Source of the DNA: Nannocystis sp. RBIL2
GTDB taxonomy: Bacteria; Myxococcota_A; Polyangia; Nannocystales; Nannocystaceae
Direction: 5' to 3'
Assembly: GCF_026626745.1 (NCBI RefSeq)
Contig: NZ_JAPNJW010000002.1
Span: forward strand, 1,382,151 to 1,446,150
Length of the DNA: 64,000 nt
Part shown: piece after piece, positions 1,814 through 18,527 of the stretch
Numbering within the stretch: the first letter of the stretch is position 1
How the letters are laid out: every line of letters starts with the position of its first letter
Made by a program: the position numbers and the translations under genes
Notes under the pieces: generated by a model
Seen by the model: the letters and a program-made list of their open reading frames with translations, nothing else
The model's database searches: none
What the model was told of the DNA's origin: nothing

Positions 1814-2796
1814 TCTGCCCTCCAGAACTCGTAGAAGTTGAACCAGTTGAGCGGCGCGAGGCGGCAGTAGTGCTCGAGGCGTTCGGCGTAGCGCTGGACA
1901 TGGGCGGCGGTGGCGGCCTCGCGGCGGCCTCTGGGGAGTTCTAATTGTTCGGCGAAGGGCTCGCAATAAAGATCGTAGCGGTCAGGCCCGTGGTAGAGCC
2001 CGAAAGTCAAATAGATCGGGCACTTTAGCAGCGCCGCCAGGGTGTAGGGCCCGGTCGGGAAGCGCGCCGGAGCGCCCAGGAACTCGGCCGTGCAGGTCTT
2101 CTCGTTGACCCCGACCCGGTCGCCGAGCACCGCCACCAGCTCGCCGCGCTCGATCGCCTCCTTGGCGGCCAGGATGTAGCTGGTGTCGCGCGGGTCGATC
2201 GGGATCACGCGCACGTCGAAGTCGGCCCCCACCGTGCGCAAGAAGTCGTTGATCATCTTCGCGTTCTGCCAGTACGCGAGGATGTGGATCGGCAGCCGCT
2301 TGTCGACGCTGCTGGCCCGCATCGCCTCGAACGAGCCGAGGTGGGCCCCGAGCAGCAGCGCCCCCTTGCCCTGCTGCTGCAGCGCCCGCAGGTGCTCGAT
2401 GCCCGTGTGCGTGATGCGGAACCGCGACGTCTCGCCGCGGACCAGGAACACGCGGTCGAGGGCGCAGCGGGCGAACGTGTAGATGTGGCGCCAGCTGGCC
2501 CAAAAGCCGTGCGGCTGGCCGATCCGCCGCAGGTAGTCCTGCGAGGCCCGCCGCGCCGCCCCGGCGAACAGCGCGTAGTAGAAGGTGATCACCGCCAGCA
2601 GCACCCCCGCCCCGCGGCGGCCGAACACCCGGCAGAACAGCAGCGTCGCCTTGATCCCGAGCACCGTCCCGCGCTCGGGCCGGGTCATCCACGCCCGGTC
2701 GCCCTCGCCCGCGACGACGGCCGGAACGCCGCCCCCCGCGGACCCGTTCTGGTTGTCCTCCAGGACATGTCCCTTCGTACCTGCCTGCTCCGCCAT
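1810..2796 (-). CDS. LpxL/HtrB-type (lysophospholipid / lipid A) acyltransferase
   Basis: 328-aa ORF with an N-terminal hydrophobic segment, an HLGSFE (Hx4E) acyltransferase motif, and overall resemblance to the acyltransferases found in aryl-polyene clusters. Same strand and tightly packed with neighbours. Confidence 0.8.
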   Translation of the reverse strand: MAEQAGTKGHVLEDNQNGSAGGGVPAVVAGEGDRAWMTRPERGTVLGIKATLLFCRVFGRRGAGVLLAVITFYYALFAGAARRASQDYLRRIGQPHGFWASWRHIYTFARCALDRVFLVRGETSRFRITHTGIEHLRALQQQGKGALLLGAHLGSFEAMRASSVDKRLPIHILAYWQNAKMINDFLRTVGADFDVRVIPIDPRDTSYILAAKEAIERGELVAVLGDRVGVNEKTCTAEFLGAPARFPTGPYTLAALLKCPIYLTFGLYHGPDRYDLYCEPFAEQLELPRGRREAATAAHVQRYAERLEHYCRLAPLNWFNFYEFWRAE

Positions 2797-2811
2797 GGCC
2801 GATCGAACCTG
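2765..2811. repeat. 14-bp-period CATG/CCTG array (4 units) spanning the acyltransferase start codon
   Basis: Motif centres at 2765 (CATG), 2780 (CCTG), 2794 (CATG, which is the ATG start on the minus strand) and 2808 (CCTG). Confidence 0.6.
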
Positions 2812-2829
2812 TCCTCTCGCGCAGCCCGA

Positions 2830-3645
2830 TCAGCGGCCGGCCGGCAGCGCCGGGCGGCGCAGGCGGCGGTAGAGGTTGACCCACGGGCGCACCATCACCC
2901 GCTGGAACGACAGCCGGGTGTGCAGCCACGAGATCTTGACGTTGTCGCCGAACACGCGGAAGTGCGACACCCCGCCCTCGTCGCGGCCGATGTAACGGAC
3001 CTTCGTCGGCAGATTGATCACCGGCACCCCGGCCCACACCAGGCGGACCGCGATCTCGATGTCGAAGTCCATGCGATCGCCGGTGCGCCCGAGCGCCAGC
3101 GCGGGCACCAGCGGGTACACACGGAAGCCGCACATCGGGTCGGTGATGACCCCGCGCCCGGCCTCGAAGTTGGTCCAGAACAGCGTGATCTTGCGGGCGA
3201 TGAGCCGCCCCTTCGGCGCCGACGCGTCGTACACCGGCGCCCCGAGGATCAGCGCGTCCGGCCGCTCGTGCGCGGTGGCGAGGAATTGCGGGATGTCCCC
3301 CAGGTCATGTTGCCCGTCGGCGTCGACCTGCAGCGCGTGGGTGTAGCCGAGCTCGTGGGCGAACTGGAACCCGGTCTTGACCGCCGCCCCCTTGCCGCCG
3401 TTGTGCGGCCGTCGCCGCACGTGCGCCAGCCCCTCCGCCCCGATCGCCTCGACCGCGGCGCGGCCCTCCGGCCCCGAGCCGTCGTCGATGACGACCACGT
3501 CGGGCAGGTGCGCCTTGACCCGCAGCACCACGTCCCGCACCGTCCGCGGATTGTCGAAGGTCGGGATCAGCGCGCACGGCCGGAACGCCGCGGCCCCGGC
3601 TTCGCCTGTCCCCAGGGACACGTCCTGGCCCCCGTCCGCGCTCAT
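2830..3645 (-). CDS. Family 2 glycosyltransferase
   Basis: ORF 2830..3720. Motifs: CALIPTFDNPRTV, VVVIDDGSGPEG, LQVDADGQHD (DxD-type). Start placed at ATG 3645 (MSADGG). Confidence 0.85.
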   Translation of the reverse strand: MSADGGQDVSLGTGEAGAAAFRPCALIPTFDNPRTVRDVVLRVKAHLPDVVVIDDGSGPEGRAAVEAIGAEGLAHVRRRPHNGGKGAAVKTGFQFAHELGYTHALQVDADGQHDLGDIPQFLATAHERPDALILGAPVYDASAPKGRLIARKITLFWTNFEAGRGVITDPMCGFRVYPLVPALALGRTGDRMDFDIEIAVRLVWAGVPVINLPTKVRYIGRDEGGVSHFRVFGDNVKISWLHTRLSFQRVMVRPWVNLYRRLRRPALPAGR

Positions 3646-3750
3646 GCCCGCCTCCCGGCGCGAGGCGCACCCAGCCCGCCGACCGTCGGCGACCGCTCTG
3701 TCCTCCCGGACATCTGGCAACGACCTGCGCCTTCGGCCATACGCACCGCC

Positions 3751-5616
3751 TCAGCCTCCGCGCGCCTCGTACTCGAGCGCCCCCGCCGTGACCACCTCGC
3801 CGGCCCGCGCCAGGGAGAAGCGGACGCTCGTCCCGCGGACCTCGAGCCGCAGCACCAGCGCGTCGCCCGGCGCGATCGGCCGGGTGAACTTCAGCCGCGT
3901 CGCCCGCCGCAGCGGCCCCAGCTCCGGCCGCAGCGCCGCCACCTGCGGCACCACCAGCGCGGTCAGCTGCGCCACCCCCGGCAGCACCGGCAGGGCGTCG
4001 AAGTGCCCGCGGAAGAACGCCAGGTCGACCGGCACCCCCACCTCGACCTCGTGCACCGACGACCCGCCCTCTTCGCGCAGCGTATGCCCGCGCAGCGCGA
4101 ACGCCGACGCCCCCGGGCCACCTGTCCCCGCGGACATGTCCCGTGAGCCACTCAGCCCCGATCCCGCGCTCGGTGCGTCCGTCGCCGAACTTACGGACAT
4201 GTCCCTCGGGCCACCCGCCGCGACTTCCTCTTCGCCCGCGAGCCCGAGCAGCGCGTGCAGCTTGCGCCGCGTCAGCTTGCCGCTCGGCTCGCGCGGCAGC
4301 GCCGGCACCACCTTGATCCGCCGCGGCACCACCACCTGGTCGAACCACGGCAACAGCGCCCGGCGCAGCTCGGCCACCAGCTCGCCGGCGTCGCGCCCGC
4401 CCTCGCGCGCGACCACGGCGGCCACCAGCTCGTGCCCGCGGGCGCCCGGCGACTCGACCGCCACCACCGCGGCGTCGGCCACCGCGGGCAGCGCCAGCAG
4501 CCGCTGCTCGACCTCGGCCACCGCCACTCGCTTGCCGGCGATCTTCACCACCCCGTCGAGCCGCCCGCGCAGGTGGAACCCGCCGCGCGCGTCGACCTCG
4601 ACGCGATCCTCGCACGGGTACGGCACCGGCGCGTCCGGCGCCAAGAACGGCGAGCGCAGCAGCAGCCGGCCCTCGGCCGCCACCTCGACAGTCACTCCCG
4701 GCAGCGGCGTCCAGGCTGGCTCCGGGGACATGTCCCTTAAAACATCCTCGTGCCGCCGCCAGCCGATCCCGCCGGTCTCCGACGAGCCGTACACCTCGGT
4801 CACCTGCAGGCCCAGCTTCGTCAGCAGCTCGTCGGCGGTCGCCCGTGGCAACGGCGCGCCCGACGAGAACACCCGCGACAGCGGCGGCAGGTCGCCGCGC
4901 GTCAGCACCGTCAGGCCGCGCAGGTGCGCCGGCGTGCTGACCAGCACCGTCGCCGCCACCTGCCGCGCCGCCCGGGCCACCGTCTCGGCGTGCAGCGGCG
5001 TCTCGCGGGCGAACGCCGCCCCCGCGGCCAGCGGCGCCAGGATCCCGAACAGCAGCCCGTAGAGGTGGTACGGCGGCACCGTCGCCAGCGCCACCTCCCC
5101 GGCCCGCAGGGCGAACGTGGCCGCCAGCGCCTGCGCCTCGCCGAGCAGCTGCGCGGCCGTCTTGGCGCACGGCTGGTGGTCGCCGGTGCTGCCCGAGGTG
5201 TACACGACCGCCAGCCGGCGATCGGCCGCCAGCGCTTCGGGCCATGTCGGATCGGCCATGTCCCCTGAAACATGTTCCGAGAGCCACTCGCGGACGTCCT
5301 GCGCGTCGGCCAGGTCGGAGTCGTGCAGCAGCGCGACCACCGACGGCCGCCCGGCCAGCTCGCGCACGGCCGCCGGCTGGGCGTTGGGCGGCAGCGCGAC
5401 CGCGTGGCCGCGCAGCCACGCCGCCAGGGTCGTCACCGCCAGGTGATAGCGGTCGCCGCACACCACCAGCACCTCGCTGCCCGGCGCCGGCGCCGGCAGC
5501 CGCGCCGCGATGCCCCTCGCGTCGCGCATGAGCTCGCCGGCCGTGCGCGCGCCGGCCTCGCCGACGGCGACGGGCGCCACGGGATCGGTGTGGACGAGCG
5601 GGACGAACGACTTCAT
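3751..5616 (-). CDS. AMP-dependent synthetase/ligase fused to a C-terminal FabZ/ApeP-like hotdog dehydratase domain
   Basis: Part of ORF 3751..6216. Motifs: VVYTSGSTGDHQPC and YGSSETGG (adenylate-forming core); the C-terminal ~110 aa carry FFRGHFDALPVLPGVAQL (hotdog). Start at ATG 5616 (MKSFVPLVH) gives an ATGA overlap with the upstream gene stop. Confidence 0.85.
   Translation of the reverse strand: MKSFVPLVHTDPVAPVAVGEAGARTAGELMRDARGIAARLPAPAPGSEVLVVCGDRYHLAVTTLAAWLRGHAVALPPNAQPAAVRELAGRPSVVALLHDSDLADAQDVREWLSEHVSGDMADPTWPEALAADRRLAVVYTSGSTGDHQPCAKTAAQLLGEAQALAATFALRAGEVALATVPPYHLYGLLFGILAPLAAGAAFARETPLHAETVARAARQVAATVLVSTPAHLRGLTVLTRGDLPPLSRVFSSGAPLPRATADELLTKLGLQVTEVYGSSETGGIGWRRHEDVLRDMSPEPAWTPLPGVTVEVAAEGRLLLRSPFLAPDAPVPYPCEDRVEVDARGGFHLRGRLDGVVKIAGKRVAVAEVEQRLLALPAVADAAVVAVESPGARGHELVAAVVAREGGRDAGELVAELRRALLPWFDQVVVPRRIKVVPALPREPSGKLTRRKLHALLGLAGEEEVAAGGPRDMSVSSATDAPSAGSGLSGSRDMSAGTGGPGASAFALRGHTLREEGGSSVHEVEVGVPVDLAFFRGHFDALPVLPGVAQLTALVVPQVAALRPELGPLRRATRLKFTRPIAPGDALVLRLEVRGTSVRFSLARAGEVVTAGALEYEARGG
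5243..5284. repeat. 14-bp-period CATGT(C/T)C array (3 units) inside the ligase CDS
   Basis: CATG at 5243, 5257 and 5271 (gccATGTCgg, gccATGTCCcc, aaCATGTTCcg). 42 bp equals 14 codons. Confidence 0.7.
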
Positions 5617-6263
5617 GCGCGGAGCAGTCGGCGGAGCAGGCGGTCGGGCAGCGCGTCGCCGAAGCGACGGAAGGTCGCCTTGCGGACGACGTACTCGACG
5701 GTGAACATTACCCCGATCAGCAGGTAGGCCAAAAGTCCGGTGTAGAGCGTCCACCAGGCCACCGGGGCCCACAGCGCCAGGCCGGCGCTGACGAGCGCGT
5801 TGGCGACGAAGAAGCCGCACCAGATCCGGGTCCACGTCCGGCAGTACTCCGGCCCGCCGGGCGGCAGGTCGGGCTCCTGCAGGCGCGCGAACCGTTCGAC
5901 CAGCGACACCGGCCCGCGCAGGCTGGCCGCGAAGTTGGCCAACAATCCCAGGTTGACCAGCACCGGCAGGGCCATGAACAGCCGCTGCTCGCCCGACAGC
6001 GCCGCCACCGCGAACAGCCCGAACAGCGACAGCGGCACCCGCAGCACCGGCCACAGGTCCTCGCGCCGGGCCTCGCGCAGGCGCAGCAGCAGCCCCGGCA
6101 GCAGCGCCGCCGCCAGCACCAGCGCCAACGTGCGCGGGCTCCAGCGCGTCATGCCGAGGTACACGACCAGCGGGTAGCCGCCGATCACCATCGACCGCAG
6201 CACCGCGGGCACCCACCTCGGGACCCCCGCGGCTCGCCGCGGCTCGCCGTTCGGGTCCGCCAT
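5613..6263 (-). CDS. Integral membrane protein of the pigment/lipid cluster
   Basis: 216-aa ORF with several hydrophobic helices (LVVYLGMT, LALVLAAALLPGLLL, LFGLFAVAAL, WCGFFVANALVSAGLALW, LLAYLLIGVMF). Translationally coupled to the ligase gene. Confidence 0.65.
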   Translation of the reverse strand: MADPNGEPRRAAGVPRWVPAVLRSMVIGGYPLVVYLGMTRWSPRTLALVLAAALLPGLLLRLREARREDLWPVLRVPLSLFGLFAVAALSGEQRLFMALPVLVNLGLLANFAASLRGPVSLVERFARLQEPDLPPGGPEYCRTWTRIWCGFFVANALVSAGLALWAPVAWWTLYTGLLAYLLIGVMFTVEYVVRKATFRRFGDALPDRLLRRLLRA

Positions 6264-6271
6264 GTCGGGCC

Positions 6272-6559
6272 TCAGCTCGCCGCCGGCGCGCGCTGTTCAG
6301 CGACGAAGCGGGCCAGGTTGGTCACGCTGGCGAAGATGTGCCGGTTCTGGGCGTCGTCGGCGCGGGTCTTGACGCCGTACTTCTTGCCGATGGCCATCGC
6401 CAGCTCGAGCACGTCGATCGAGTCGAGGCCCAGCCCCTCGACCAGCAGCGGCGCCTCTGGGTCGATGTCCTCGGGGGTCATGTCCTGCAGCATCAGGGCC
6501 TCGATGATGAGCTCCTTGATCTCGCGGACCAGGGCGTCGGGCGGGGCGGCATCTGTCAT
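6272..6559 (-). CDS. Acyl carrier protein
   Basis: 95 aa; LGLDSIDVLELAMAIG contains the phosphopantetheine-Ser motif (DSxD). Confidence 0.85.
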   Translation of the reverse strand: MTDAAPPDALVREIKELIIEALMLQDMTPEDIDPEAPLLVEGLGLDSIDVLELAMAIGKKYGVKTRADDAQNRHIFASVTNLARFVAEQRAPAAS

Positions 6560-6727
6560 GGGGTCGGCGCATCCTACGGGGATCGCCCTGGAGACGACAA
6601 GCGGCGCCCATCATCCTCCGTGGACGCCCGAGCTGCGCGCTGCGGTCACCGACACCGCGCAAGCTCACATCTCCCCCTGGCTCTTGGTGCAGGCGACCTC
6701 GGCGGCCCTCGGTACGCTCGCCGCCGC

Positions 6728-7507
6728 ATGACAAGCACCCAGCAACCGCGGATCGCCATCGTCACCGGCGGCGGCAACGGCATCGGCCGCGCCACCGCTC
6801 TCAAGTTCGCCGAGGCCGGCTACGGCGTGGCCGTGTGGGACCTGGCCGAACAGGCAGCCGAGGAGGTCGTGTCCGCGATCACCGCCGCCGGCGGCGTCGC
6901 CATCGCCCGCAAGGTCGACGTCAGCAAGCCCGAGGACTGCGTCGCCGGGGTCGCCGCCGTGCTCGAGCGGTTCGGCCGGATCGACGTCCTCATCAACAAC
7001 GCCGGCGTCGTCCGCGACGGCCAGTTGGTCAAGGTCAAGGACGGTCAGGTGGTCGGACAGATGAGCGCCGACCAGTTCCAGTTCGTCCTCGATGTCTGCC
7101 TCAAGGGCGTGTTCAACTGCACCCAGGCGGTCGTGCCGACCATGATCGCCCAGAAGTACGGGCGAATCGTCAGCACCAGCTCGGTGGTCGCATTGTACGG
7201 CAACTTCGGCCAGACCAACTACGTCGCCGCCAAGGCCGGCGTCGTCGGCATGACGCGCGTATGGGCGCGCGAGCTCGGCCGCTACGGCATCACGGCGAAC
7301 GCCGTCGCCCCGGGCTTCATCGCCACCGACATGGTCAAGAGCATCCCGGAGAAGGTTTATAACGCGCTGATCGAGCACACCCCGGTCGGCCGCGCCGGAC
7401 AGCCCGACGACATCGCTCGCGCCTATCTCTTCCTGGCCGACGACAAGTCGAGCTTCATCAACGGCGCCATCTTGAGCGTCGACGGCGGCTCCGTCGTCGG
7501 CACCTGA
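6728..7507 (+). CDS. fabG: 3-oxoacyl-ACP reductase (SDR, FabG-like)
   Basis: In-frame part of ORF 6338..7507 from ATG 6728 (MTSTQQPRIAIVTGGGNGIGRA). Motifs: TGxxxGIG, NNAG, YVAAKAG (YxxxK), VAPGFI. Confidence 0.9.
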   Translation: MTSTQQPRIAIVTGGGNGIGRATALKFAEAGYGVAVWDLAEQAAEEVVSAITAAGGVAIARKVDVSKPEDCVAGVAAVLERFGRIDVLINNAGVVRDGQLVKVKDGQVVGQMSADQFQFVLDVCLKGVFNCTQAVVPTMIAQKYGRIVSTSSVVALYGNFGQTNYVAAKAGVVGMTRVWARELGRYGITANAVAPGFIATDMVKSIPEKVYNALIEHTPVGRAGQPDDIARAYLFLADDKSSFINGAILSVDGGSVVGT

Positions 7508-7688: not shown

Positions 7689-9473
7689 ATGCACGACGAC
7701 GGCGCGCGCTGGCTACCCAAGTTTCTCGCGGACAGCGGCTACCGCCACGCGATGTATACCCATCAGTGGACCGAGGTGTTGATCTGGCGCGACACGGAGC
7801 GGTGGCTCGGCCGCGGACCCGACCGCGACAGCGCCCTCGAAGATGCGCTGACGCAGATGTTCCCGTCAGCTGCCGCGCGTCAGCTCTTCGATCGCTTCCG
7901 CGACGGCCTCCAGGAGCCAGCCCGTCCGCAGGCGGCGCCACCCAGCGCCGCAGTATCCGCCGAAGTTATCCCCGCCCCGCCCGCACCGCCCGCCCCGCCC
8001 GAACCCGAGCTACCGCGCAGCCCGATCGTCGGCCGGATCCAGCTACCGACTTATCCCGCTGCTGCGGTCGCCGAGGCGCGCGAGACCCTGGAAGAGATCC
8101 TCAAGGACATCCAGGACATGCGACCCGACTTCGCGCTGATGTCGCCGCGCTATCAGAAGGTCTACATGCTGGCGTGGATCTCACGCGCGCGCAGCTTCGA
8201 CGAGCAGTTCCAGGGCGAGCACAAGATCACCGTACTGGTGCGACGGATCGCCCACGAGCTGACGAACCTCAGCAAGACCTTGTGGCCCGGCTCGGTGCAG
8301 GCGCTGCAGATGAACGCGGTGCCCGCATGTGTGGTGACCGAGCTCGGGCTCAAGACGCTGCACGCGCCGAAGACCTGGGCCGAGGCGCACGAGTTCGTGC
8401 AGAACCATCGCGAGCGCGCGATGACCAGCGAGGTCCCGGTCGACGACTACGGCTGGGCCGACCGCCCGCGCAAGGCCCCGCCGGGCCAGCCCCGCGCCCT
8501 CCTGCGCGAGGCCCAGCGCGCCGTCGAAGCCATCGCCGGCAACGTCACCGATCCGCCGCCGCGCCACCTCACCACGCCGCCGGAGGAGCTGCCGAACGAG
8601 CAGCTCGACGCGCTCGTCAAGCACGCCCAGGCGCTGCGCGACATCCGTCGCTTCATCGCCGCCGAGGACCCCGAGACCTGGGGCGCCGTCATGGGCCGCC
8701 TGCGCTGGCTCGCGGGGCGCCTCGGCGAGCGCCTGCCGCAGCTGCGTCGCTGGCTCGACCCCGAGTTCATCCCGCCGCCCGAGCGCGCCAAGACCGGGCC
8801 CTCGGCCGATCAGGTGCGCCAGCAGCAAGCGACGGTGCGAGCCGAACGCGACGCCCTGGTCGCCGCTGACAGCTTCGACGACGAGGCCCTGCTCGCCTTC
8901 CTCGGCCGGGCCTTCGACGCCCACAACACGCCCGAGGTCGCCTCGCTGGTCCAGCCGATCCGCCCGCGCATCGACGCCCTGCGCCCCGACCTGTTCGAGG
9001 ACCGCCGCATGCGTCGCCGCCTCACCGGCCTGCAGGACGTGATCAAGCGCGGAGAGCTCGGCGTGCTGCCGTCCGACAGCGACAGCGACCTCGAGGAAGA
9101 GACCGAAGACGTCGACGATCCGGGCGCGCACCTGGTCGCCCAGGTCCGGCCCAAGGTCGAGGGCAAGCGGGTCCTGTTCGTCAGCAACCGCGAAGACCCC
9201 GACCTCAAGTCGAAGCTCGAGGAGTCGCTCGGCCTCGACATCACCTGGTGCGACGGCAACGCCCGCAAGGTCCAGGCCCAGTGCGAGAGCATCTCGCGCC
9301 ACAGCTACGACTACGTGCTGATCGCCACCGGCTTCCAGGCCCACAACATCGACGGCATCCTCGCCCGCGCCGCCCGGGCCAGCGCCATCCCGTACGTCCG
9401 CGTGTTCAAGGGCCGCCCCCTCGCGGTCGCCCGCGCCCTCGCCCGCAGCCTCGGCGTCGCCTCCGCCGCCTGA
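7689..9473 (+). CDS. Hypothetical protein with C-terminal DUF2325-like domain
   Basis: 594-aa ORF. The C-terminus (KRVLFVSNREDPDLKSKLEESLGLDITWCDGNARK...YDYVLIATGFQAHNIDGILARAARASAIPYVRVFKG) matches the DUF2325 pattern from memory. The rest has no recognisable family. Confidence 0.7.
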   Translation: MHDDGARWLPKFLADSGYRHAMYTHQWTEVLIWRDTERWLGRGPDRDSALEDALTQMFPSAAARQLFDRFRDGLQEPARPQAAPPSAAVSAEVIPAPPAPPAPPEPELPRSPIVGRIQLPTYPAAAVAEARETLEEILKDIQDMRPDFALMSPRYQKVYMLAWISRARSFDEQFQGEHKITVLVRRIAHELTNLSKTLWPGSVQALQMNAVPACVVTELGLKTLHAPKTWAEAHEFVQNHRERAMTSEVPVDDYGWADRPRKAPPGQPRALLREAQRAVEAIAGNVTDPPPRHLTTPPEELPNEQLDALVKHAQALRDIRRFIAAEDPETWGAVMGRLRWLAGRLGERLPQLRRWLDPEFIPPPERAKTGPSADQVRQQQATVRAERDALVAADSFDDEALLAFLGRAFDAHNTPEVASLVQPIRPRIDALRPDLFEDRRMRRRLTGLQDVIKRGELGVLPSDSDSDLEEETEDVDDPGAHLVAQVRPKVEGKRVLFVSNREDPDLKSKLEESLGLDITWCDGNARKVQAQCESISRHSYDYVLIATGFQAHNIDGILARAARASAIPYVRVFKGRPLAVARALARSLGVASAA

Positions 9474-11444: not shown

Positions 11445-11505
11445 AACATGACCGTAGAGGCATGTTCCATCGAGCATGTCCATGACACCATGTCGCACAC
11501 GTGAC
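11445..11505. repeat. 14-bp-period CATG array (4-5 units), intergenic
   Basis: CATG at 11447, 11461, 11475 and 11489 (aaCATGacc, ggCATGTTCc, agCATGTCCa, acCATGTCgc), followed by CACGTG near 11500. Confidence 0.75.
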
Positions 11506-11961: not shown

Positions 11962-11970
11962 ACCTGTCCC

Positions 11971-12021
11971 GAGTGACATGTCCCCCAGGACATGTCACTC
12001 GCCGCCTGTCCCGCAGGACAG
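11971..12021. terminator. Two adjacent hairpins between convergent genes
   Basis: GAGTGACATGTCC-ccca-GGACATGTCACTC (13-bp arms, 11971-12000) and CTGTCC-cgca-GGACAG (12006-12021). They fill the 68-bp gap between stops 11961 (+) and 12030 (-). Confidence 0.45.
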
Positions 12022-12029
12022 CCCCCGGC

Positions 12030-14897
12030 TCAGCCCTTGCGCCGGCGCGCCCGGACCACGCAGCGTGCCGCGCGCTGCGGGCGGAACAGCGTCCTCGCCA
12101 GCGCCCACACCCCCTCGGCGGTCACCGCCGCCACTCGCTGCGGGTACGCGAACGCCCGCGCGCGCGGCAGCCCGTAGACCTCGGACAGCGCCAGCAGCGA
12201 CGCCATCCGGCTGCGGCGCTGCTGACCGAGCTCGAACTGACCGACCAGCCACGCCTTGGCGCGCTCGACCTCCGCCGCCGACGGCGGCTCTCGCACCGCG
12301 CGCTCGACCTCCGCCGCGATCGCGGCCATCGCCTTCGGCAGCTTGTCCTGGCTCGTCGACGCGTGGATCGCCACGTGGCCGGCGTCGACGCCCTCCACGC
12401 TGCTCATCGACACCTCGTACACCAGCCCCTGGACCTCGCGCAGCGCCGTGAACAGGCGCCCGGTCTGGCCGCCGAGCACCGCGCTGAGCACGTCGAGGGT
12501 CGGCTCGCGCTCGTCGCCGACGGCGATGCCCGGCCAGCCGAGGGCGATGTGGGCCTGCTCGCGGTCCTGGAAGATCTCGCGCTCGCGCGGCCCGGTCGGC
12601 GCCGCGAACTTCTTCGGCGCACCTGGCCCTTCAGACAGCCTGTCTCCGAGGCCAGCCTCGCGCAGCGCCGCCTCGACCTGGGCTGCCGCCGCCGCCACGT
12701 CGATGTCGCCGGCCAGGGCCAGCACCGCCTGCCCGATCGGGTAGTCGCGGCGCCACACCCCGCGCAGCTTGGCCGGCGTCAGCGCCCGCAGCCCGGCCGG
12801 CGTACCGCGGCCCGGGCGGCTGAACGGGTGCTCGCCGTACAGCAGCGCGTTCAGCCCGCGGCTGGCCACCGCGCCCGGATCGTCGACCTCGGCCGCCAGG
12901 TCCTGCAGCGCCACCCGCCGCTCCTCCTCGAGCTCGTCGGCCGCGAACTTCGGCGTGGTCGCGCAGTCGAGCGCGTGCCCGAGCACCGCCGGGAAGTGCC
13001 GGCTCAGGCACTCGAAGTGCAGGCCCAGGCTGTTGCGGCCGGCGAACCCGTCGAGCCCCGCGGCCATCCCGTCGATCGCCCGGCTCAGCGCCTCGCCGCC
13101 GGTGCGGGCGTTGCCGCGGGTGAGCAGCGCCGCGATCAGCGAGTTCGCGCCGGCCAGCGCCGCCGGCTCGCGCCGCAGCCCGCCCGGCCAGATCAGCCAG
13201 CCCGCCGCCACCGGCACCGCCGGCTCGACCCGCGCCAGCAGGCGCAGGCCGCACGCCAGCGTCACCGTCTCGATCCCGTCGCTGGCGCAGCGCGGCCTCA
13301 CCCCGGCGCGCCCCGGCGTCGGCGCCGGCTTCAGCGCCTCGGCCACCGCGGCCTTGAGCGACCTGGCCGTTTGGACATCCACCTCCGCGCGCGGCAGCTC
13401 GAGGCTGACGCTCGCGCGCGCCGGGTCGAGCCAGCGCGCGCAGGCCGAGCGGACCGCCTCGGGCGTCAGCGCCGCCAGGGCCGCGTAGTACTCGCGCTCG
13501 CGGGCGAGGTCGCCGAACAGCGTCGCGCAGGCCCCGAGCGCGTGGGCCTGGCCCTGCACCGTCTCGCGCCGGTACACCAGGTCGCTCTCGAGGATCGCCT
13601 TGGCCCGCGCCAGCTCCTCGGCCGACACCGGCGCGTCCGCCAGCCGCCGCACCTGGGCCACCACCGCCGCCACCGCCGCCGCCGTCTGGTTCGCGGTCGT
13701 GCGCGCCGACACCATCACCGTCCCGCCGTGCCGCAGCGTGTCGCAGTGGGCCTGGATGTCCGAAACGACCTGTTCTTTGCGACGTGTCTCGGCGACCAGG
13801 CGCGACGACTCGCCGTTGCCGAGCACCACCGACGCCGCGTCGATCGCCGCCGCCTCGGCCGCGCCGGCCGCCGGCGCCGGCCAGGCCAGCAGCGCGTAGG
13901 TCTCCTGGACCTCGGCGCGGCGCAGCGTCACCCCCGGCTTCGGCGCCGGCTCGCCCGTCGACGCGCGCCCCTTGGCCGCCGGCAGCGCGCCGACGATCGC
14001 CCGTGCCACCTTGCGCAGCGCGGCCACGTCGACCGCGCCGACCGCCACCAGAGTCAGCCGCTCGCCGGCGTAGGCTCGTCGGTGGTACCCGCGCAGCCGC
14101 GCCGCCGAGTGCCCCGCGACCTCTTCCGCCAGGCCGAGCACCGGCCGCGCGTACGCGTGCGCCCCGTACACCCGCGACAGCGCCGCCTGCGTCACCCGCT
14201 GGCCCGGGTCGTCGTCGTACTGCTTGATCTCCTCGATCACCACCTCGCGCTCCTGCCCCAGAGTGGCCGGGTCGAGCGTCGGGAACAGCGTCGCGGTGGC
14301 CACCAGCGCCGCCGCCTCGGCCGCGCGGGCCGCCGGCGTCGTCACGTGGACCACCGTCTCGTCGTGGCTGGTGAACGCGTTGATGTCGCCGCCGAGCGCC
14401 TCGATCGCGCCCGCGAGATCGAACGCCTCCTCCGTCCGCCGCACCCCGGCCGCCGCCAGGCGCGCGCGGTTGCTCTTCGGGCCATGTCCCAAAGCACATG
14501 GCTTGAAGAGCATGTGCTCGAGCAGGTGGGCGCAGCCGTGCTCGTCCTCCCGCTCGGCCGCGGTGCCCGAGCCGACCCACAGCTGCACCGCCGCCGGCCC
14601 GGCCCCGGCCGGTCGCCCCGGCAGGATCAGCAGGCGGGCGCCGTTGGCCAGCCGCTCGTCGACGAGCGGCGCGAATTGAGTGGCGGCGCCGGGGAGATCG
14701 AGGCCGCGGGGCGAAGGGGGCGAGACGGGCAGATCGGGCACGGTAAAAGCTCGCCGCCCGCCGGTCGCGCGCGGCGCCTCCTCATACCGCGAGTCGCCGC
14801 CCCGCGCATCCTCGCCCGCGCCCGGCGCCGCCCCGCCACCGATTCGCGGCCCCGGGCCGCCAACGCTCGCGGAGCGCCGCCTCCGGGCCGCGGCCAT
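12030..14897 (-). CDS. M16 (pitrilysin/insulinase) family zinc peptidase, two-module
   Basis: 955-aa ORF. HLLEHMLFK (HxxEH) near the N-terminus, plus a second M16-like half. The start is uncertain (GTG 14741 is possible). Confidence 0.9.
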   Translation of the reverse strand: MAAARRRRSASVGGPGPRIGGGAAPGAGEDARGGDSRYEEAPRATGGRRAFTVPDLPVSPPSPRGLDLPGAATQFAPLVDERLANGARLLILPGRPAGAGPAAVQLWVGSGTAAEREDEHGCAHLLEHMLFKPCALGHGPKSNRARLAAAGVRRTEEAFDLAGAIEALGGDINAFTSHDETVVHVTTPAARAAEAAALVATATLFPTLDPATLGQEREVVIEEIKQYDDDPGQRVTQAALSRVYGAHAYARPVLGLAEEVAGHSAARLRGYHRRAYAGERLTLVAVGAVDVAALRKVARAIVGALPAAKGRASTGEPAPKPGVTLRRAEVQETYALLAWPAPAAGAAEAAAIDAASVVLGNGESSRLVAETRRKEQVVSDIQAHCDTLRHGGTVMVSARTTANQTAAAVAAVVAQVRRLADAPVSAEELARAKAILESDLVYRRETVQGQAHALGACATLFGDLAREREYYAALAALTPEAVRSACARWLDPARASVSLELPRAEVDVQTARSLKAAVAEALKPAPTPGRAGVRPRCASDGIETVTLACGLRLLARVEPAVPVAAGWLIWPGGLRREPAALAGANSLIAALLTRGNARTGGEALSRAIDGMAAGLDGFAGRNSLGLHFECLSRHFPAVLGHALDCATTPKFAADELEEERRVALQDLAAEVDDPGAVASRGLNALLYGEHPFSRPGRGTPAGLRALTPAKLRGVWRRDYPIGQAVLALAGDIDVAAAAAQVEAALREAGLGDRLSEGPGAPKKFAAPTGPREREIFQDREQAHIALGWPGIAVGDEREPTLDVLSAVLGGQTGRLFTALREVQGLVYEVSMSSVEGVDAGHVAIHASTSQDKLPKAMAAIAAEVERAVREPPSAAEVERAKAWLVGQFELGQQRRSRMASLLALSEVYGLPRARAFAYPQRVAAVTAEGVWALARTLFRPQRAARCVVRARRRKG
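14482..14523. repeat. 14-bp-period CATG array (3 units) inside the M16 CDS, just after HxxEH
   Basis: CATG at 14482, 14496 and 14510. It encodes ...KPCALGHGPKSN... on the minus strand. Confidence 0.65.
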
Positions 14898-15139: not shown

Positions 15140-17008
15140 GTGCTCTCTCCGACGCTCGCGTTGCGCTGCCCGCATTGCCAGCACGCCCTCTCGCTCGCCG
15201 ACCTCCGCGACGCCGCCGACTGCCCTGCGTGCCGCCAGTCCCACGGCTTGCCTCCGGCCGTCGCCGACGCCCTGGCCCTCTACGAGCGGGCGATCCAGCA
15301 AGCAGTCAGCGACCTGGTCCACAGCGCACCTGTCCCGAAGGTCAGCCCCGAACCCGAGGCCGAGGCCCCGCCGCCGAGCCCGCGGCTCCACGCGCGCCAC
15401 CAGCCCGGCCCCTCGGCCCGGCTGCTCGCCGCTCCCGTCCCGCCGACCACCCTGCTCTCGATCGGCCCGGCCCCGCCGCCCGCAGTCCCGGCCCCCGTGC
15501 GACCTGTCCTGAGGGACAGCGCTGCTCCGCTCGACGCTCCCGAGCCCGGCGACACCTTGCAAGGCCCCCGCCCCGGTCGCTGGGCGGAAGCCCGACCCGG
15601 CACCCTGCCGGCCGAGCTGGCCGCGGGCCTGGGCGTCCACGGCCACGACGCCGCGCCGGAGCCGGCCCAGCTGTCCCTGCCCGTCGAAGCAACTGTCTCC
15701 GCGGACACGCGATTCCAACCTGTCCCCACGGACAGCCGGAACATCGACCCCAAGGACACGCGATCTCAACCTGTCCCCACGGACAGCCAGCACTTATCTG
15801 CCCCTTCGGACAGCCACATCACCGCCCGCCACACCTCCCCGCCACCTGTCCCTGCAGACAGCTCACCCGCCGCCCCGGCCCCGCTCACCGCGGTCGCTCC
15901 CGGCTTCGACCCCGCCGCGCTGTCCGGCCCCTTGCCCGCCCCGCGCGAGCAGGCACCTGGCCTCGGGGCCAGCCTCGCCCGCGACCCGGCCGCGCGGACG
16001 ACCGCCAGCGACACCCTCCCCGGCGCCGCGTTGAACCCGTCGAACTCCTCGCTCCTGGCGATCCTCTCCAACCGCTCCGGCGCCAGCCTCAGCACGCCCT
16101 CCTCGACGGCGGGGCTCGCGGCTCCGCCCGGCGGTCTGGCCGAGGCGCCGCTGGTGGTCGCCGCGGTGCGCGAGCCCGCCGACCGCCCGCCGTCCCCCGC
16201 GACCCAGGAGCTGATCGCCGCAGTCCGCTCCTTCCTCCCCGATCGCCGCGACGTCGCCGGCCCCGAGCCCGAGGGGCGGATCCCCGCCAGCGCCCTCGCG
16301 GTCGCCCGCCGCGCCCTCCTGGCCCGCCACGCCGACGAGCGGCGCCAGCAGCAAGTCCACGACGGCGGCCTCGGTCTCCTGTTCGCCGCCATCGTCTGCG
16401 GCGGCCTGCTCCTGTTCGGCCTGTGGTACGTCGCCGCCCCGATCGCCGTCCTCGCCGTCCTCCTGCGTCTGCGCCGCGAGGAGCGCGGCGAGCGGTTCGG
16501 CGCCGAGGTCCAGCGCCTCGGCGACGCGCTCGGCGGCCAGCGCCTCCCCAGCTACGACGCCATCGCCGCGTGGTTCGATCGTCTGTGGCCCGCGCCCGTC
16601 AGCCCCGAGGCGATGTGGACCAGCCACCTGCACGGGGCGGTCCGCTGCGACGTGCACGGCTTCCCCGCGCTGGTCGACGTCCACCTGAACGAAAAGACAG
16701 CCGGCGGCGTCGTCTACCCGCCGCGGATCACCGCCTACCTCGCCGCCCTCTGGCCCAGCCGCGTGCCCTCTCTGCGCATCACCGCCACCGACCTCACCCC
16801 CGCCGCCCAGGCCCGGCTCGCGCGCCTGCGCAAGGCCGGCTACACCGTCGTCGCCGACGCCCACGGCGGCCTCATCATGCGCGCCAGCGAGTCGATCGCC
16901 CAGGCCGCGCGGGCGGACATCACCCGTCTGCCCGCGCTGCAGGTCCCGATCGGCGAGCTCGCCGACCTCGCCCGCGACCTCGGGGCCGAGCCCGTCCCCG
17001 CGCCCTAG
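15140..17008 (+). CDS. Hypothetical membrane protein with N-terminal zinc ribbon and Pro-rich low-complexity region
   Basis: 622 aa; RCPHCQHAL...CPACRQ (CxxC x2); a long P/A/S-rich region; TM segment GLGLLFAAIVCGGLLLFGLWYVAAPIAVLAVLL; a globular C-terminus. Confidence 0.7.
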   Translation: MLSPTLALRCPHCQHALSLADLRDAADCPACRQSHGLPPAVADALALYERAIQQAVSDLVHSAPVPKVSPEPEAEAPPPSPRLHARHQPGPSARLLAAPVPPTTLLSIGPAPPPAVPAPVRPVLRDSAAPLDAPEPGDTLQGPRPGRWAEARPGTLPAELAAGLGVHGHDAAPEPAQLSLPVEATVSADTRFQPVPTDSRNIDPKDTRSQPVPTDSQHLSAPSDSHITARHTSPPPVPADSSPAAPAPLTAVAPGFDPAALSGPLPAPREQAPGLGASLARDPAARTTASDTLPGAALNPSNSSLLAILSNRSGASLSTPSSTAGLAAPPGGLAEAPLVVAAVREPADRPPSPATQELIAAVRSFLPDRRDVAGPEPEGRIPASALAVARRALLARHADERRQQQVHDGGLGLLFAAIVCGGLLLFGLWYVAAPIAVLAVLLRLRREERGERFGAEVQRLGDALGGQRLPSYDAIAAWFDRLWPAPVSPEAMWTSHLHGAVRCDVHGFPALVDVHLNEKTAGGVVYPPRITAYLAALWPSRVPSLRITATDLTPAAQARLARLRKAGYTVVADAHGGLIMRASESIAQAARADITRLPALQVPIGELADLARDLGAEPVPAP

Positions 17009-17012: not shown

Positions 17013-17438
17013 GTGTCCGTCACGCGTGAACACGCGACCACGTCCGCCCGGTGTCCCCAGTGTGGGACCGGCGTGACCGTGCATCACACCGTCGCCCGCC
17101 GCGACGACGGGGTCCGTTGGTCCACCGCGATCCGCTGCCTCGCCTGCGGCCTCTCGCTCGAGTCGGACAGCAACGCCGGCGACTCGGCCGCGCGAGCCGC
17201 CGTGCTGGCCACCAACGGCTCGTGGATCGTCCGCCTCACCAGCCTCGGCCCGCGACCGATCCGCGTCCTGCGGGCCCTCCGCGACACTCTCGGCCTCTCG
17301 CCCGCCGTCGCCCGCACGCGCCTCGCCGCCCTCGCCCAGGGCACCCGCGTCGAGATGGAGGCGCTGCTGGCCAAGTTCGTCCGCGAGGGCGCCGAGGGCA
17401 CCTGCGTCCGCGTCGAGCCGACCTCCGGCCCGCGCTGA
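17013..17438 (+). CDS. Hypothetical zinc-ribbon protein with L7/L12-CTD-like tail
   Basis: 141 aa; CPQCG...CLACG; the tail IRVLRALRDTLGLSPAVARTRLAALAQGTRVEMEALLAKFVREGAE resembles the ribosomal L7/L12 C-terminal domain fold pattern. Starts 4 nt after the upstream stop. Confidence 0.55.
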   Translation: MSVTREHATTSARCPQCGTGVTVHHTVARRDDGVRWSTAIRCLACGLSLESDSNAGDSAARAAVLATNGSWIVRLTSLGPRPIRVLRALRDTLGLSPAVARTRLAALAQGTRVEMEALLAKFVREGAEGTCVRVEPTSGPR

Positions 17439-17605
17439 CCGACGACCCCGACCCTCCTCGCGCAGCGCCGCCGATGCATGGCCCATCCATCGCATCGAGG
17501 ACCTCGCCCCCGTCCTCGCGTCGCGCGTGGAGACCTCCGCGCCTCGCTCCGCCGCGAGCGTTGCCGCGCCGCCGAATCGACGGCGCCTTTGGTTATGCTC
17601 GCAGC

Positions 17606-18370
17606 ATGGGTTCGTTGCGAGACAAGGTCGCGCTGATCGTCGGCGGCAACTCGGGCATCGGCAAGGCGACCGCCTTCGCCTTCGCCGACGCCGGGGCCAG
17701 GATCGTGGTCGCCGCCCGTCGCCGGGCCGAGGGGCTCGACGTCGTCGAGCAGCTGCGCGCCCGCGGCACCCCTGCGATCTTCGTCCCCCTCGACGTCACC
17801 GTCGAGGACGACATCGTCGCCGGCGTCGCCGCCACCGTCGCCGAGTTCGGCCGCCTCGACTGCGCGGTCAACTCCGCCGGCATCTGCGAGGACTTCGGCC
17901 CCGTCACCGACGTCGACGGCGCCGCCTTCGATCGCATGATGGCCGTCAACGTCCGCGGCACCCTCCTCGGCATGAAGCACCAGCTGAAGCAGATGGTCGC
18001 GCAGGGCGGCGGCGGCAGCATCGTCAACGTCGCCTCGATCCTCTCCCACGTCGGCACGCCCACCGGTTCGGCCTACGTCGCCACCAAGCACGCCGTCCTC
18101 GGCATCACCCGCTCGGCCGCCCTCGGCCACGCCAAGCAGGGCATCCGCGTCAACTGCGTCGCCCCGACCGCCATCACCGGCACGCCGATGGTCGACAACG
18201 CCCTGGCGAACTTCCCCGCGGTCATGGAGCCCGTCATCTCCGCCATCCCGATGGGCCGCCCCGGCCGCGCCGACGAGGTCGGCCGCGCGATCGCCTGGCT
18301 CAGCAGCGACGACGCCGCCTTCATCTCCGGCCACTCCCTGGCGATCGACGGCGCCCAGCTCGCCATGTGA
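17606..18370 (+). CDS. Short-chain dehydrogenase/reductase
   Basis: In-frame part of ORF 17051..18370 from ATG 17606 (MGSLRDKVALIVGGNSGIGKA). Motifs: NSAG, YVATKHA (YxxxK). Confidence 0.9.
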   Translation: MGSLRDKVALIVGGNSGIGKATAFAFADAGARIVVAARRRAEGLDVVEQLRARGTPAIFVPLDVTVEDDIVAGVAATVAEFGRLDCAVNSAGICEDFGPVTDVDGAAFDRMMAVNVRGTLLGMKHQLKQMVAQGGGGSIVNVASILSHVGTPTGSAYVATKHAVLGITRSAALGHAKQGIRVNCVAPTAITGTPMVDNALANFPAVMEPVISAIPMGRPGRADEVGRAIAWLSSDDAAFISGHSLAIDGAQLAM

Positions 18371-18383
18371 GCGCTGCGCATTA

Positions 18384-18527
18384 TCTGTCCATTTGGGCAT
18401 GTCCATTCAGACATGGCTCAAAAGACAGCAACGAACGTGAGGCCGGTTACGTGAGCATCGCGCGGGCGTTCGACTCTGTCTCTTCAAGAATGTCCTCCAG
18501 GACATGTCCTCTCGGGCATGTCCTCGA
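18384..18527. repeat. Two 14-bp-period arrays (3 units each) between convergent genes
   Basis: Array 1 has centres at 18384 (TCTG), 18398 (CATG) and 18412 (CATG). Array 2 has ATGTCCTC at 18490, 18504 and 18518. Both lie between stop 18370 (+) and stop 18548 (-). Confidence 0.8.

Follow-up and report, generated by a model that had tools for sequence, protein, structure and literature searches.

A dispersed family of palindromic repeats with a strict 14-bp period at gene 3' ends in Nannocystis

Arrays and single elements along the window

The window, i.e. the whole 64,000-nt stretch of Nannocystis sp. RBIL2 DNA analysed here, carries a short repeat that is concentrated in its high-GC3, core-like part, among genes such as those for an AMP-dependent ligase, an M16 peptidase and a short-chain dehydrogenase. 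The low-GC3 part is nearly free of the repeat, contains an IS66 transposase and has the appearance of recently acquired DNA. The catalogue below gives eight arrays (A1 to A7 and A4b) and the elements scattered around them, none of which is assigned a strand.

2749-2814: array A1, five 14-bp units (GTTGTCC, GGACATGTCC, CCTGCCT, CCATGGCC and CCTGTCC) at the junction of a GT2 gene (stop 2830) and an acyltransferase gene (start 2796), both on the minus strand
3607-3620: single TGTCC-CCAG-GGACA, within the 5' part of the GT2 gene
3699-3712: single TGTCC-TCCC-GGACA, 39 nt past the stop of the AMP-ligase gene (minus strand)
4123-4141: TGTCC-CCGC-GGACATGTCC element, within the AMP-ligase gene
5240-5277: array A2, three units within the AMP-dependent ligase gene (3751-5616, minus strand)
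9488-9539: array A3, three perfect ACATGTCCTC units and one degenerate unit, 14 nt past the stop of a 594-aa gene (7689-9473, plus strand), with the next gene 256 nt on
10509-10522: single CTGTCC-CTTC-GGACAG, in the 34-nt spacer between convergent genes (10288-10494, plus strand; 10529-11167, minus strand)
11430-11495: array A4, five units (one GGACAGG and four CATG units) directly past the stop of a 71-aa gene (11214-11429, plus strand) and upstream of a 141-aa gene
11960-12025: array A4b, five units filling the spacer between convergent stops at 11961 (plus strand) and 12030 (M16 peptidase, minus strand); hairpins with a 13-bp stem, GAGTGACATGTCC-N4-GGACATGTCACTC, and CCTGTCC-CGCA-GGACAG
14480-14517: array A5, three units within the M16 peptidase gene (12030-14741, minus strand), folding as a hairpin with a 15-bp stem
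15505-15860: cluster of CTGTCC-N4-GGACAG, including a 27-bp tandem repeat at 15693-15785, in the Pro-rich linker of the gene for a 622-aa zinc-ribbon-like protein (15140-17008, plus strand), where it encodes PVPTDS-like peptides
18381-18418: array A6, three units, 10 nt past the stop of the short-chain dehydrogenase gene (17615-18370, plus strand), in a convergent spacer
18472-18523: array A7, three good units (AATGTCC, CATGTCC, CATGTCC) and one degenerate unit, 24 nt past the stop of an S41 peptidase gene (18548-19636, minus strand), in the same convergent spacer as A6
34444-34457: ATGTCC-AAAT-GGACAG, the sole family member in 20-64 kb, 21 nt past the stop of a gene at 33656-34423 (plus strand)

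The 14-bp periodicity of CATG, proposed in an earlier sequence-only reading, is genuine and far above chance. Pairs of CATG occur 13 times at lag 14 and seven times at lag 28, and zero to three times (about one) at each of the remaining lags between 4 and 60. A three-unit scan with CATGTCC gave 13 plus-strand and seven minus-strand matches at period 14 and zero or one at all other periods between 7 and 30, while CATG-N10-CATG-N10-CATG was found five times in the window vs 0.00 in 100 dinucleotide-preserving shuffles. The array coordinates of that reading proved accurate within 1 nt, and two intergenic arrays, ACATGTCCTC three times at 9490 and ATGTCCTC three times at 18490, match its description. 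CATG starts at 2766/2794, 5243/5257/5271, 9491/9505/9519, 11447/11461/11475/11489, 14483/14497/14511, 18398/18412 and 18503/18517; most of the CATG centres previously listed hold, but the degenerate units do not (2780 and 2808 are CCTG, 9533 is CACG, 18384 is TCTG and 18489 is AATG). At least eight loci had been announced and seven listed, the eighth array, at 11960-12025, having been overlooked. The supposed confinement of arrays to 2.7-18.6 kb is right in that no array lies in 20-64 kb, but one isolated TGTCC-N4-GGACA does, at 34444.

Anatomy and folding of the unit

What had been taken for a direct repeat of CATG(TCC) is instead a 10-bp palindrome, GGACATGTCC, with a free 4-nt spacer, or, equivalently, a series of abutting TGTCC-N4-GGACA 14-mers. 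The latter, minimal element occurs 12 times in the window vs 0.02 expected, and TGTCC-Nx-GGACA is recurrent only at x=4 (three sequence sets gave 12, 27 and 33 copies, with zero or one at other values of x). The position matrix of 116 units reads G90 G90 A73 / CATG / T63 C81 C88; half-sites and 4-bp spacing are strictly conserved and the spacer sequence is wholly free. The elementary element is a palindrome of 14-16 bp, (A/C)TGTCC-N4-GGACA(T/G). With both arms ending in CA/TG, adjacent elements have the GGACATGTCC decamer in common and chain head to tail, and it is this chaining that makes the 14-bp period strict. Because GGACATGTCC is palindromic, direct repeat and inverted repeat are identical in these arrays, and any pair of neighbouring units can fold into a hairpin whose loop is 4 nt long and whose stem reaches up to 10 bp, whether in RNA from either strand or in single-stranded DNA. 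An intrinsic polarity, suspected from an apparent common orientation (TCC-TC on the plus strand), was rejected, as the unconstrained spacers track the strong local GC skew.

In most arrays, minimum free energy folds contained stretches of 10-16 paired bases closed by 4-nt loops (z typically -3 to -10). The sixth stem pair covaries, as A:T or C:G (z=5.6); complementarity past it is at chance level, that of adjacent units only slightly above the null, and symmetry within units below it (1.54 vs 1.67). Since complementarity is at or near chance outside the core, the sequence is conserved beyond the needs of a mere stem, and this excess points to protein recognition or common descent. Folds, G.U pairs, loops and U-tracts give no hint that selection acts on the RNA: folds show no strand preference (sense more stable in seven arrays, antisense in six), the sense strand has no enrichment of G.U-type mismatches (6 vs 10), loops read in the sense orientation favour neither GNRA nor purines, and no U-tract follows the arrays (2.07 T in 15 nt vs about 2.2 expected). 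No canonical terminators beyond chance were found in 1-20 kb, and none at an array.

Placement, coding copies and distribution

Elements almost always lie immediately past a stop codon or in convergent spacers, not at promoters, with a minority inside genes. Among 45 arrays from the window and related loci, 17 are convergent, 14 co-directional, none divergent and about 10 coding, with gene positions in the related loci coming from a codon-usage gene caller verified only against the called genes of the N. pusilla locus L120. Of the intergenic length, 29% falls in divergent spacers and only 11% in convergent ones. All 14 co-directional arrays abut the upstream stop, at a median gap of 7 nt vs 144.5 nt to the next start, and stop-codon adjacency persists even where 150-400 nt of spacer are free; in E. 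coli, too, REPs are reported to lie often within about 15 nt of stop codons. In the window, four of the eight arrays lie between or after convergent stops, and none of the three divergent spacers in 1-20 kb carries an array. The flanking genes are ordinary (EamA, esterase, metallopeptidase, fn3, DUF924), and no transposase was found adjacent to the arrays. Element density is 0.06 per kb in coding DNA vs 0.3-2.5 per kb in intergenic DNA.

About one fifth of the arrays and one quarter of the scored single elements lie inside genes, including the two arrays reported earlier in the AMP-dependent ligase and M16 peptidase genes, which we confirmed. A2 encodes E-H-V-S-G-D-M-A-D-P-T-W-P with 6/13 A/T-ending codons (46%), compared to 4.4% in the remainder of the gene, and A5 encodes E-H-M-L-F-K-P-C-A-L-G-H-G-P with 5/14 (36%), compared to 3.8%. 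These rare codons indicate that coding copies are constrained at the nucleotide level; their CAT, ACA and GCA codons are retained across species, and A2 is conserved in L120 and in two other orthologous loci, L121 and L122. The idea that coding copies are clean, lineage-specific 42-bp insertions fails: the loop that holds A2 is hypervariable, relatives as distant as ~61-70% identity show no indel there, and judging from such comparisons A2 appears to have arisen in place, while the first CATG of A5 forms the conserved His-Met codons of the peptidase HxxEH-M motif.

Such arrays recur at numerous sites in N. pusilla, N. bainbridge, N. radixulma and N. punicea, and also in MAGs. Arrays like those of the window are separated by megabases in N. 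pusilla Na p29 and spread over several contigs of N. bainbridge. As far as a genome-wide lag-14 check was feasible it was positive, with arrays at many separate places in at least six Nannocystis genomes, and the lag-14 excess recurs in L120, L121 and L122, which were picked independently of the repeat. An array orthologous to A1 is retained in L120 (22513-22550), and A4 in L120 and L121. Copy number changes between strains in 14-bp steps: A3 has three units in the window vs nine CATG units in its L120 orthologue, where the M16 peptidase is 98% identical, and indels carrying hairpins distinguish the two strains. L036, L066 and L120 contain perfect 14-bp tandem runs. In different species arrays can occupy the same intergenic spacer and yet not be alignable. 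No array was found in 36 kb of loci from two outgroup Nannocystaceae (Nannocystaceae ST9 and Enhygromyxa), and the palindromic family is so far found only in Nannocystis and close relatives. A literature search returned no description of it, and it seems to be previously undescribed. The earlier suggestion of a host-specific, dispersed, REP-like repeat is supported; that of a MITE-like element is not, since no terminal inverted repeats or target duplications were noticed around the arrays examined (an incidental observation).

Related repeat systems and possible functions

Two papers (PMC3337134, PMC3116915) provided the REP and REPIN properties for comparison. As described there, the REP/BIME elements known from Enterobacteria and Pseudomonas, together with REPINs (pairs of REPs that RAYT transposases mobilise), are, like the Nannocystis family, short, lineage-specific, dispersed multi-copy palindromes, overwhelmingly outside genes, at 3' ends and in convergent spacers, often clustered, hairpin-forming, fast-changing in number and persistent within lineages. 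The Nannocystis unit is much shorter than a REP (14-16 bp core), lacks the GTAG/CTAC tag and comes without a RAYT (in a weak search), and a sizeable minority of copies is coding, while classical REPs are not inside genes. BIMEs alternate orientations with defined linkers, whereas the Nannocystis arm is self-complementary, in one register and strictly 14 bp in period.

Other systems share single features. Intrinsic (Rho-independent) terminators, including the proposed U-tract-free hairpins of high-GC bacteria, also place a stable hairpin right after the stop; the array hairpin is likewise bidirectional between convergent genes, and nothing else resembling a terminator could be detected in the region. 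Unlike terminators, the arrays lack a U-tract and a sense-strand G.U signature, conserve the stem sequence across hundreds of unrelated genes, run to three to nine units where one hairpin suffices and also occur inside genes. Rickettsia palindromic elements lie in frame within permissive regions of coding genes, but are clean insertions of 100-150 bp, against a 14-bp unit with at least one coding copy lacking an indel. Mycobacterial MIRU-VNTRs are intergenic tandem units of strain-variable copy number, but are direct repeats of 40-100 bp inside operons rather than 14-bp palindromes. Neisseria DUS, Haemophilus USS and cyanobacterial HIP1 are also genus-specific (8-12-mers) and very high in copy number, are found inside genes, where they override codon preference, as well as in inverted pairs downstream of genes, and are depleted in foreign DNA; they have no fixed spacing and no phased arrays, and USS and HIP1 copies are mostly coding, whereas in the Nannocystis family the density in 3' spacers is about 10-40 times that in genes.

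Our preferred reading, at a probability of about 0.5, is a dispersed palindromic family that behaves like REP/BIME, marks gene 3' ends and grows by 14-bp slippage. The arrays presumably function as hairpins or as protein sites, and under the latter option they could be abutting 14-bp palindromic sites (TGTCC-N4-GGACA) for a putative Nannocystis-specific dimeric DNA-binding protein. Dimers 14 bp apart would spiral round the helix (three sites making four turns) and at gene 3' ends provide a roadblock terminator, an insulator or chromosome-organising sites, hairpin potential being a by-product of symmetry. The strictly conserved half-sites and 4-bp spacing around a free spacer, the absence of an RNA-strand signature, complementarity that stops at the conserved half-site, nucleotide-level retention of coding copies across species despite rare codons, and arrays of 3-6 units, beyond what a single hairpin needs, all favour such a protein. 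We nonetheless hold it to be possible but doubtful: no candidate emerged, there is no evident reason for a double-stranded-DNA site to adjoin stops, within-unit symmetry falls below the null, fully compensated non-consensus stems exist (e.g. TGACATGTCC/GGACATGTCA and GGACATGTCG/CGACATGTCC), and rapid 14-bp copy-number change resembles slippage, not selection for a set number of sites. A narrower version, in which the iterated protein-binding site suggested by the earlier reading would mean operators or iterons of a local transcription factor controlling the aryl-polyene-like gene cluster, can point to eight arrays in 16 kb around one biosynthetic cluster and to a motif readable as ATGT-N8-ACAT, which may resemble a PadR-type box. 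It is hardly credible and already contradicted by the distribution: 0/45 arrays lie in divergent spacers, arrays abut stop codons, and the same arrays follow unrelated genes throughout several Nannocystis genomes.

Purely selfish, REPIN-like non-autonomous DNA, copied by a transposase (a single-copy HUH/Y1 enzyme of RAYT type, or another) that works on single-stranded DNA hairpins, would have no host function, and its 3'-end bias would reflect where insertions are tolerated. The family is indeed abundant, lineage-restricted and dynamic, nearly absent from the recently acquired-looking, IS66-carrying part of the window and found in permissive protein loops and linkers, with CATG conserved beside the hairpin, as in IS200/IS605 and REP systems. 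We judge this explanation unlikely, given an AMP-ligase copy without indel relative to orthologues, arrays that abut the stop even when free spacer is available, no transposase beside them, a unit without the GTAG tag and no RAYT found in 284 kb, in a weak search with an approximate query. More improbable still is an iterated signal kept by molecular drive rather than insertion, whether a DUS/USS-like uptake or recombination signal or a HIP1-like methylation-linked palindrome. Strict N4 spacing and phased arrays are foreign to DUS, USS and HIP1, and coding density is far below intergenic. Points in favour of such a signal are coding copies that employ rare codons and arise with no indel, the depletion of the element where DNA composition is atypical, a palindrome that contains CATG, a common methyltransferase site, and paired copies downstream of genes, an arrangement also known for DUS.

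If the REP-like reading is correct, replication slippage between self-complementary units would expand and contract the arrays, and occasional copies may be tolerated, with nucleotide-level retention, in variable surface loops and disordered protein linkers. The elements would serve Nannocystis as punctuation at gene 3' ends, where, by analogy with what is reported for REPs, bidirectional hairpins without a U-tract may halt RNA polymerase or make it pause, shield mRNA 3' ends, or do both.

A palindromic unit repeated every 14 bp

Arrays of a CATG(TCC) motif with a strict 14-bp period had been claimed by the sequence-only reading, and this periodicity is genuine. Among the 215 CATG tetranucleotides of the window (70% G+C), pairs 14 bp apart occurred 13 times and pairs 28 bp apart seven times, against 0-3 for any other lag up to 60. 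Scanning for three CATGTCC units gave 13 (+) and 7 (-) matches at period 14 and 0-1 at the other periods from 7 to 30, and CATG-N10-CATG-N10-CATG was observed five times, compared to 0.00 expected from a shuffle control. The loci listed by that reading are arrays with coordinates correct to 1 nt or better, yet not every supposed centre is a CATG: degenerate units stand at 2780 and 2808 (CCTG), 9533 (CACG), 18384 (TCTG), and 18489 (AATG). One array, at 11960-12025, had been overlooked. The reported absence of arrays from the accessory part holds for the whole of 20-64 kb.

When 116 units drawn from 30 arrays were aligned in unoriented form, the matrix read GGA-CATG-TCC, with symmetric conservation. 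Each array unit thus combines the 10-bp palindrome GGACATGTCC with four free bases. The arrays can also be parsed as abutting TGTCC-N4-GGACA 14-mers, and this description is the more basic of the two. Searches for TGTCC-Nx-GGACA gave 12 copies in the window, 27 across three orthologous loci and 33 from 19 further Nannocystis loci, exclusively with x=4 in all three sets, and GGACA with TGTCC immediately after it is about half as frequent as TGTCC-N4-GGACA. By chance, 0.02 copies of this 14-mer are expected in the window; single elements lie there at 3607, 3699, 4123, 10509, 15505, 15721, 15772, and 34444. The base pair flanking the core covaries, being either A:T (CATG type) or C:G (CTG...CAG type; z=5.6). 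Arrays arise because the arm is itself palindromic; in the sequences examined they run for 3-9 phased units of 14 bp and lack distinct termini.

All window arrays carry TCC-TC on the + strand, irrespective of gene direction. Between 2001 and 20000 the GC skew of this strand is uniformly and strongly negative (-0.07 to -0.19), and the neutral third-position skew averages about -0.22. Spacer C-G content followed local skew over 83 elements (rho -0.36, p=7e-4), and the spacer C:G ratio across loci (1.65) equals the neutral third-position expectation. Since C-rich spacers lie on the C-rich strand and track its skew, the shared 'orientation' reflects the compositional skew of unconstrained spacers, and we rejected an intrinsic polarity of the arrays. 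Beyond ~22 kb the skew is weaker and around zero (-0.10 to +0.08), coinciding with a change in gene content.

Arrays behind stop codons and inside genes

Gene calls came from a codon-usage model that had been trained on the window, and they match those made in an orthologous locus. Among 45 arrays of at least three units, 17 lie in convergent and 14 in co-directional spacers, none in divergent spacers, about 10 within genes, and four at locus edges. Divergent spacers account for 29% of the intergenic length, convergent ones for just 11%. Every co-directional array (14/14) abuts the upstream gene's stop codon, with a median of 7 nt to that stop vs 144.5 nt to the next start, and all 31 classifiable intergenic arrays are at 3' ends. 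In the window, array A3 starts 14 nt past a stop and A4 immediately behind one, A4b (11960-12025) occupies a convergent spacer, A6 and A7 together occupy another, and A1 spans the junction of two genes in one operon. The three divergent spacers of 1-20 kb contain no arrays.

Zero divergent arrays and the placement at stop codons rule out promoter operators, and this distribution is typical of REP elements and terminators. An iterated protein-binding site, as earlier proposed, is therefore not supported in the sense of a promoter operator or iteron (0/45 arrays in divergent spacers). The motif can be read as a PadR-type ATGT-N8-ACAT box or a CRP/FNR-type 5-N4-5 site; both readings are disfavoured because arrays avoid promoters. 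MITEs, also not supported, are 50-500 bp long with terminal inverted repeats and target-site duplications, whereas these arrays, in the sequences examined, are plain phased units. Array-flanked genes considered as candidate transposases are all ordinary genes.

Intragenic copies comprise about 10 of the 45 arrays and, among the single elements, 14 of 56. Those in genes of the window include the following.

3751-5616, - strand: AMP-dependent ligase gene
5240-5277: array A2 in the ligase gene, encoding E-H-V-S-G-D-M-A-D-P-T-W-P
12030-14741, - strand: M16 peptidase gene
14480-14517: array A5 in the M16 gene, encoding E-H-M-L-F-K-P-C-A-L-G-H-G-P
15140-17008, + strand: gene of a 622-aa protein
15693-15785: 27-bp tandem repeat (3.6 copies) in the Pro-rich linker of the 622-aa protein

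Codons ending in A/T account for 46% of the ligase array vs 4.4% of the remainder of the gene, and for 36% vs 3.8% in the M16 peptidase. N. pusilla, N. radixulma and a more distant relative with 74% M16 identity retain the rare codons that make CATG: CAT and ACA, or GCA in the last of the three. Both coding copies had been suspected to be lineage-specific insertions of 42 bp, and neither turned out to be a clean one. The ligase segment is a hypervariable loop ahead of the TSGSTG motif and has no indel down to ~61-70% identity. In the M16 peptidase, the first CATG encodes the conserved His-Met of HxxEH-M, and the Nannocystis loop past FKP exceeds that of distant relatives by ~20 residues. The linker of the 622-aa protein contains several CTGTCC-N4-GGACAG elements, some of which fall in the tandem repeat, where there is one per 27-bp unit and PVPTDS-like peptides are encoded; the protein has an N-terminal CxxC...CxxC zinc-ribbon-like motif, and its orthologues range from 505 to 631 aa.

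Distribution and turnover of the repeat

Nannocystis-group myxobacteria have genomes of 12-13 Mb and 70% GC. The 284 kb of loci, taken from at least eight Nannocystis assemblies, contain 45 arrays and about 200 near-consensus elements; judged from these loci, many copies are dispersed over the chromosome of one lineage, as in REP elements. In N. pusilla Na p29, arrays lie at 3.7, 4.7, 6.7, 8.0, and 10.4 Mb. Similar ones, with conserved palindrome and variable spacers, are present in N. bainbridge (several contigs), N. radixulma, N. punicea, one Nannocystis MAG, and one Nannocystaceae MAG. The lag-14 excess extends beyond the window: three orthologous Nannocystis loci, picked through the M16 gene independently of the repeat, contain 15, 10, and 5 lag-14 CATG pairs, whereas other lags give about 0-0.4. 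No such excess was seen at the corresponding loci in Nannocystaceae ST9 and Enhygromyxa salina. A phyletic scan (ATGTCC-N8 x3, one genome per species) matched many phyla, and a wide spread was rejected, as the matches outside Nannocystis turned out to be microsatellites with heptamer units or perfect tandem repeats of 14 bp. Long microsatellites of (TGTCCAA)n, (TGTCCTA)n, and (TGTCCGA)n are strikingly recurrent, often several per genome (L002, L007, L009, L017, L021, L023, L026, L030, L084, L107, L109, L117, and other loci), in MAGs of Bacteroidota, Acidobacteriota, Gemmatimonadota, Planctomycetota, and Verrucomicrobiota, without any relation to the Nannocystis arrays. Rfam 15 covariance models at gathering score gave 0 matches over the whole window and no description was found in the literature searched; the family is apparently undescribed so far.

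The M16 peptidase shares 98% identity with its N. pusilla counterpart, and the AMP-dependent ligase 100% with a protein of Nannocystis sp. ILAH1. A3 has three good units in the window vs nine CATG units, mostly perfect GCATGTCCTCGCGC copies, in the N. pusilla strain of the orthologous locus L120; perfect 14-bp runs also occur in loci L036 and L066. Element-bearing indels in the S41/dehydrogenase spacer distinguish the window from the same N. pusilla strain, and the inter-strain indel there is a tandem segmental duplication. Downstream of the M16 gene, every Nannocystis species has elements whose offsets and numbers differ and cannot be aligned. Elements thus turn over while they persist at the same gene ends, and array length would change via 14-bp slippage.

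A single viral contig, IMG/VR UViG_3300005675_000065 (L123, 66% GC), carries GGACATGTCC-N4-GGACATGTCC, at 8925-8948, in a hairpin with a 16-bp stem, CCTCTCGGACATGTCC-TCTC-GGACATGTCCGAGAGG. The contig possibly represents a phage or prophage with a Nannocystis-like host; a phage origin of the repeat was rejected, with just one hairpin in one viral contig.

Other features of the window are listed here.

1-7507: aryl-polyene/flexirubin-like cluster, syntenic in four Nannocystis loci, with aromatic amino-acid ammonia-lyase, LpxL-like acyltransferase, GT2, ACP, ketoreductase, and a fusion of 4-coumarate-CoA-ligase with an ApeI/FabA-like domain
9763-9815: two perfect palindromes, CATGTCAAGC-TA-GCTTGACATG and TTGACAT-C-ATGTCAA
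9782-10264: gene downstream of the palindromes
10288-10494: 68-aa HTH_3 (XRE-type) gene, also downstream
52822-53805: IS66-family transposase

The palindromes at 9763-9815 overlap a promoter-like TTGACA...TATCTT, are conserved in N. pusilla L120, and are distinct from the repeat family; they probably represent a local operator. The 20-64 kb part (GC 0.63-0.73) looks like accessory or acquired DNA: its GC3 is lowered (0.79-0.94, mostly 0.84-0.91), no native-looking gene could be called at about 42.7-45 kb and 56.9-63 kb, and it encodes, besides the transposase, a Ser/Thr kinase, an ECF sigma factor, an M36 fungalysin, and a jacalin-like lectin. It contains just one repeat element, 21 nt behind a stop.

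Hairpins, proteins and the role of the repeat

The best-supported interpretation is a REP-like palindromic family that marks gene 3' ends, so far in Nannocystis and close relatives only. As the decamer is self-complementary, two neighbouring units can pair as a stem up to 10 bp long, closed by a 4-nt loop. Minimum free energy folds showed stems of 10-16 bp with 4-nt loops in most arrays (z typically -3 to -10), and several stems contain fully compensated non-consensus bases, such as GAGTGACATGTCC/GGACATGTCACTC at 11972-12001. With its TGTCC-N4-GGACA core, the repeat is thus a short imperfect palindrome with stem-loop potential, as REP elements are. Chaining of a self-complementary decamer into phased arrays is an unusual design among them, and the family has an unusual architecture within a well-known class.

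We favour hairpin-based 3' punctuation as its function, since the arrays are so tightly tied to stop codons and other terminators are lacking: the hairpins would terminate or pause transcription, or protect mRNA 3' ends. A canonical intrinsic terminator has a GC-rich hairpin followed by a U-tract, and the arrays lack the latter (mean of 2.07 T in the next 15 nt vs about 2.2 expected from composition); a terminator scan placed no canonical terminator at any array. Nothing specifically RNA-level was found: fold energy did not differ between sense and antisense (7 vs 6 arrays), single mismatches of G.U type were not enriched on the sense strand (6 vs 10), and loops showed neither GNRA nor a sense-strand purine bias. 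Complementarity past the sixth pair is at chance level, so hairpins do not extend into the spacers. The sequence is thus conserved beyond the need of the stem alone. This lack of an RNA-strand signature, together with strict half-site conservation, keeps recognition by a dimeric DNA-binding protein a serious rival to hairpin punctuation. A bolder version, which we consider rather improbable, is that the arrays are not hairpins but abutting 14-bp operators on which a putative Nannocystis-specific dimeric protein polymerises helically behind stops, forming a general protein-based terminator or insulator, a bacterial analogue of Sal-box/TTF-I or mTERF terminator arrays, or a signal for chromosome organisation or uptake.

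The repeat may alternatively be a purely selfish REPIN-like element. RAYT-type REPs have a GTAG/CTAC tag at the hairpin foot, whereas the unit matrix contains no such tetranucleotide and shows CATG or C(A/C)TG...C(A/T)G. In REPIN-RAYT systems the repeats flank a single-copy cognate RAYT (Y1 HUH transposase) gene. A tblastn search of the 284 kb with an approximate E. coli RAYT query gave nothing significant; its one candidate match (25% identity, no HUH and Tyr motifs), within the 594-aa protein, was spurious. It may also be a driven signal of the DUS/HIP1 type; the likeness to DUS/USS signals, which bias DNA uptake by the competence machinery, is indirect and lies in the coding copies without indels and the depletion in atypical DNA.

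The repeat is still one more lineage-specific REP-like family, hence of moderate surprise. With no recognisable canonical terminators in the region and a conserved element 7 nt behind stops, it is a good candidate for a marker of transcription-unit ends, usable to improve operon and terminator annotation in Nannocystis-group genomes. Array copy number differs between strains with 98% identical proteins and could serve for strain typing. Finally, gene-internal copies kept despite their rare codons offer a clean system to ask who keeps such a repeat: the host, a binding protein, or its own replication.
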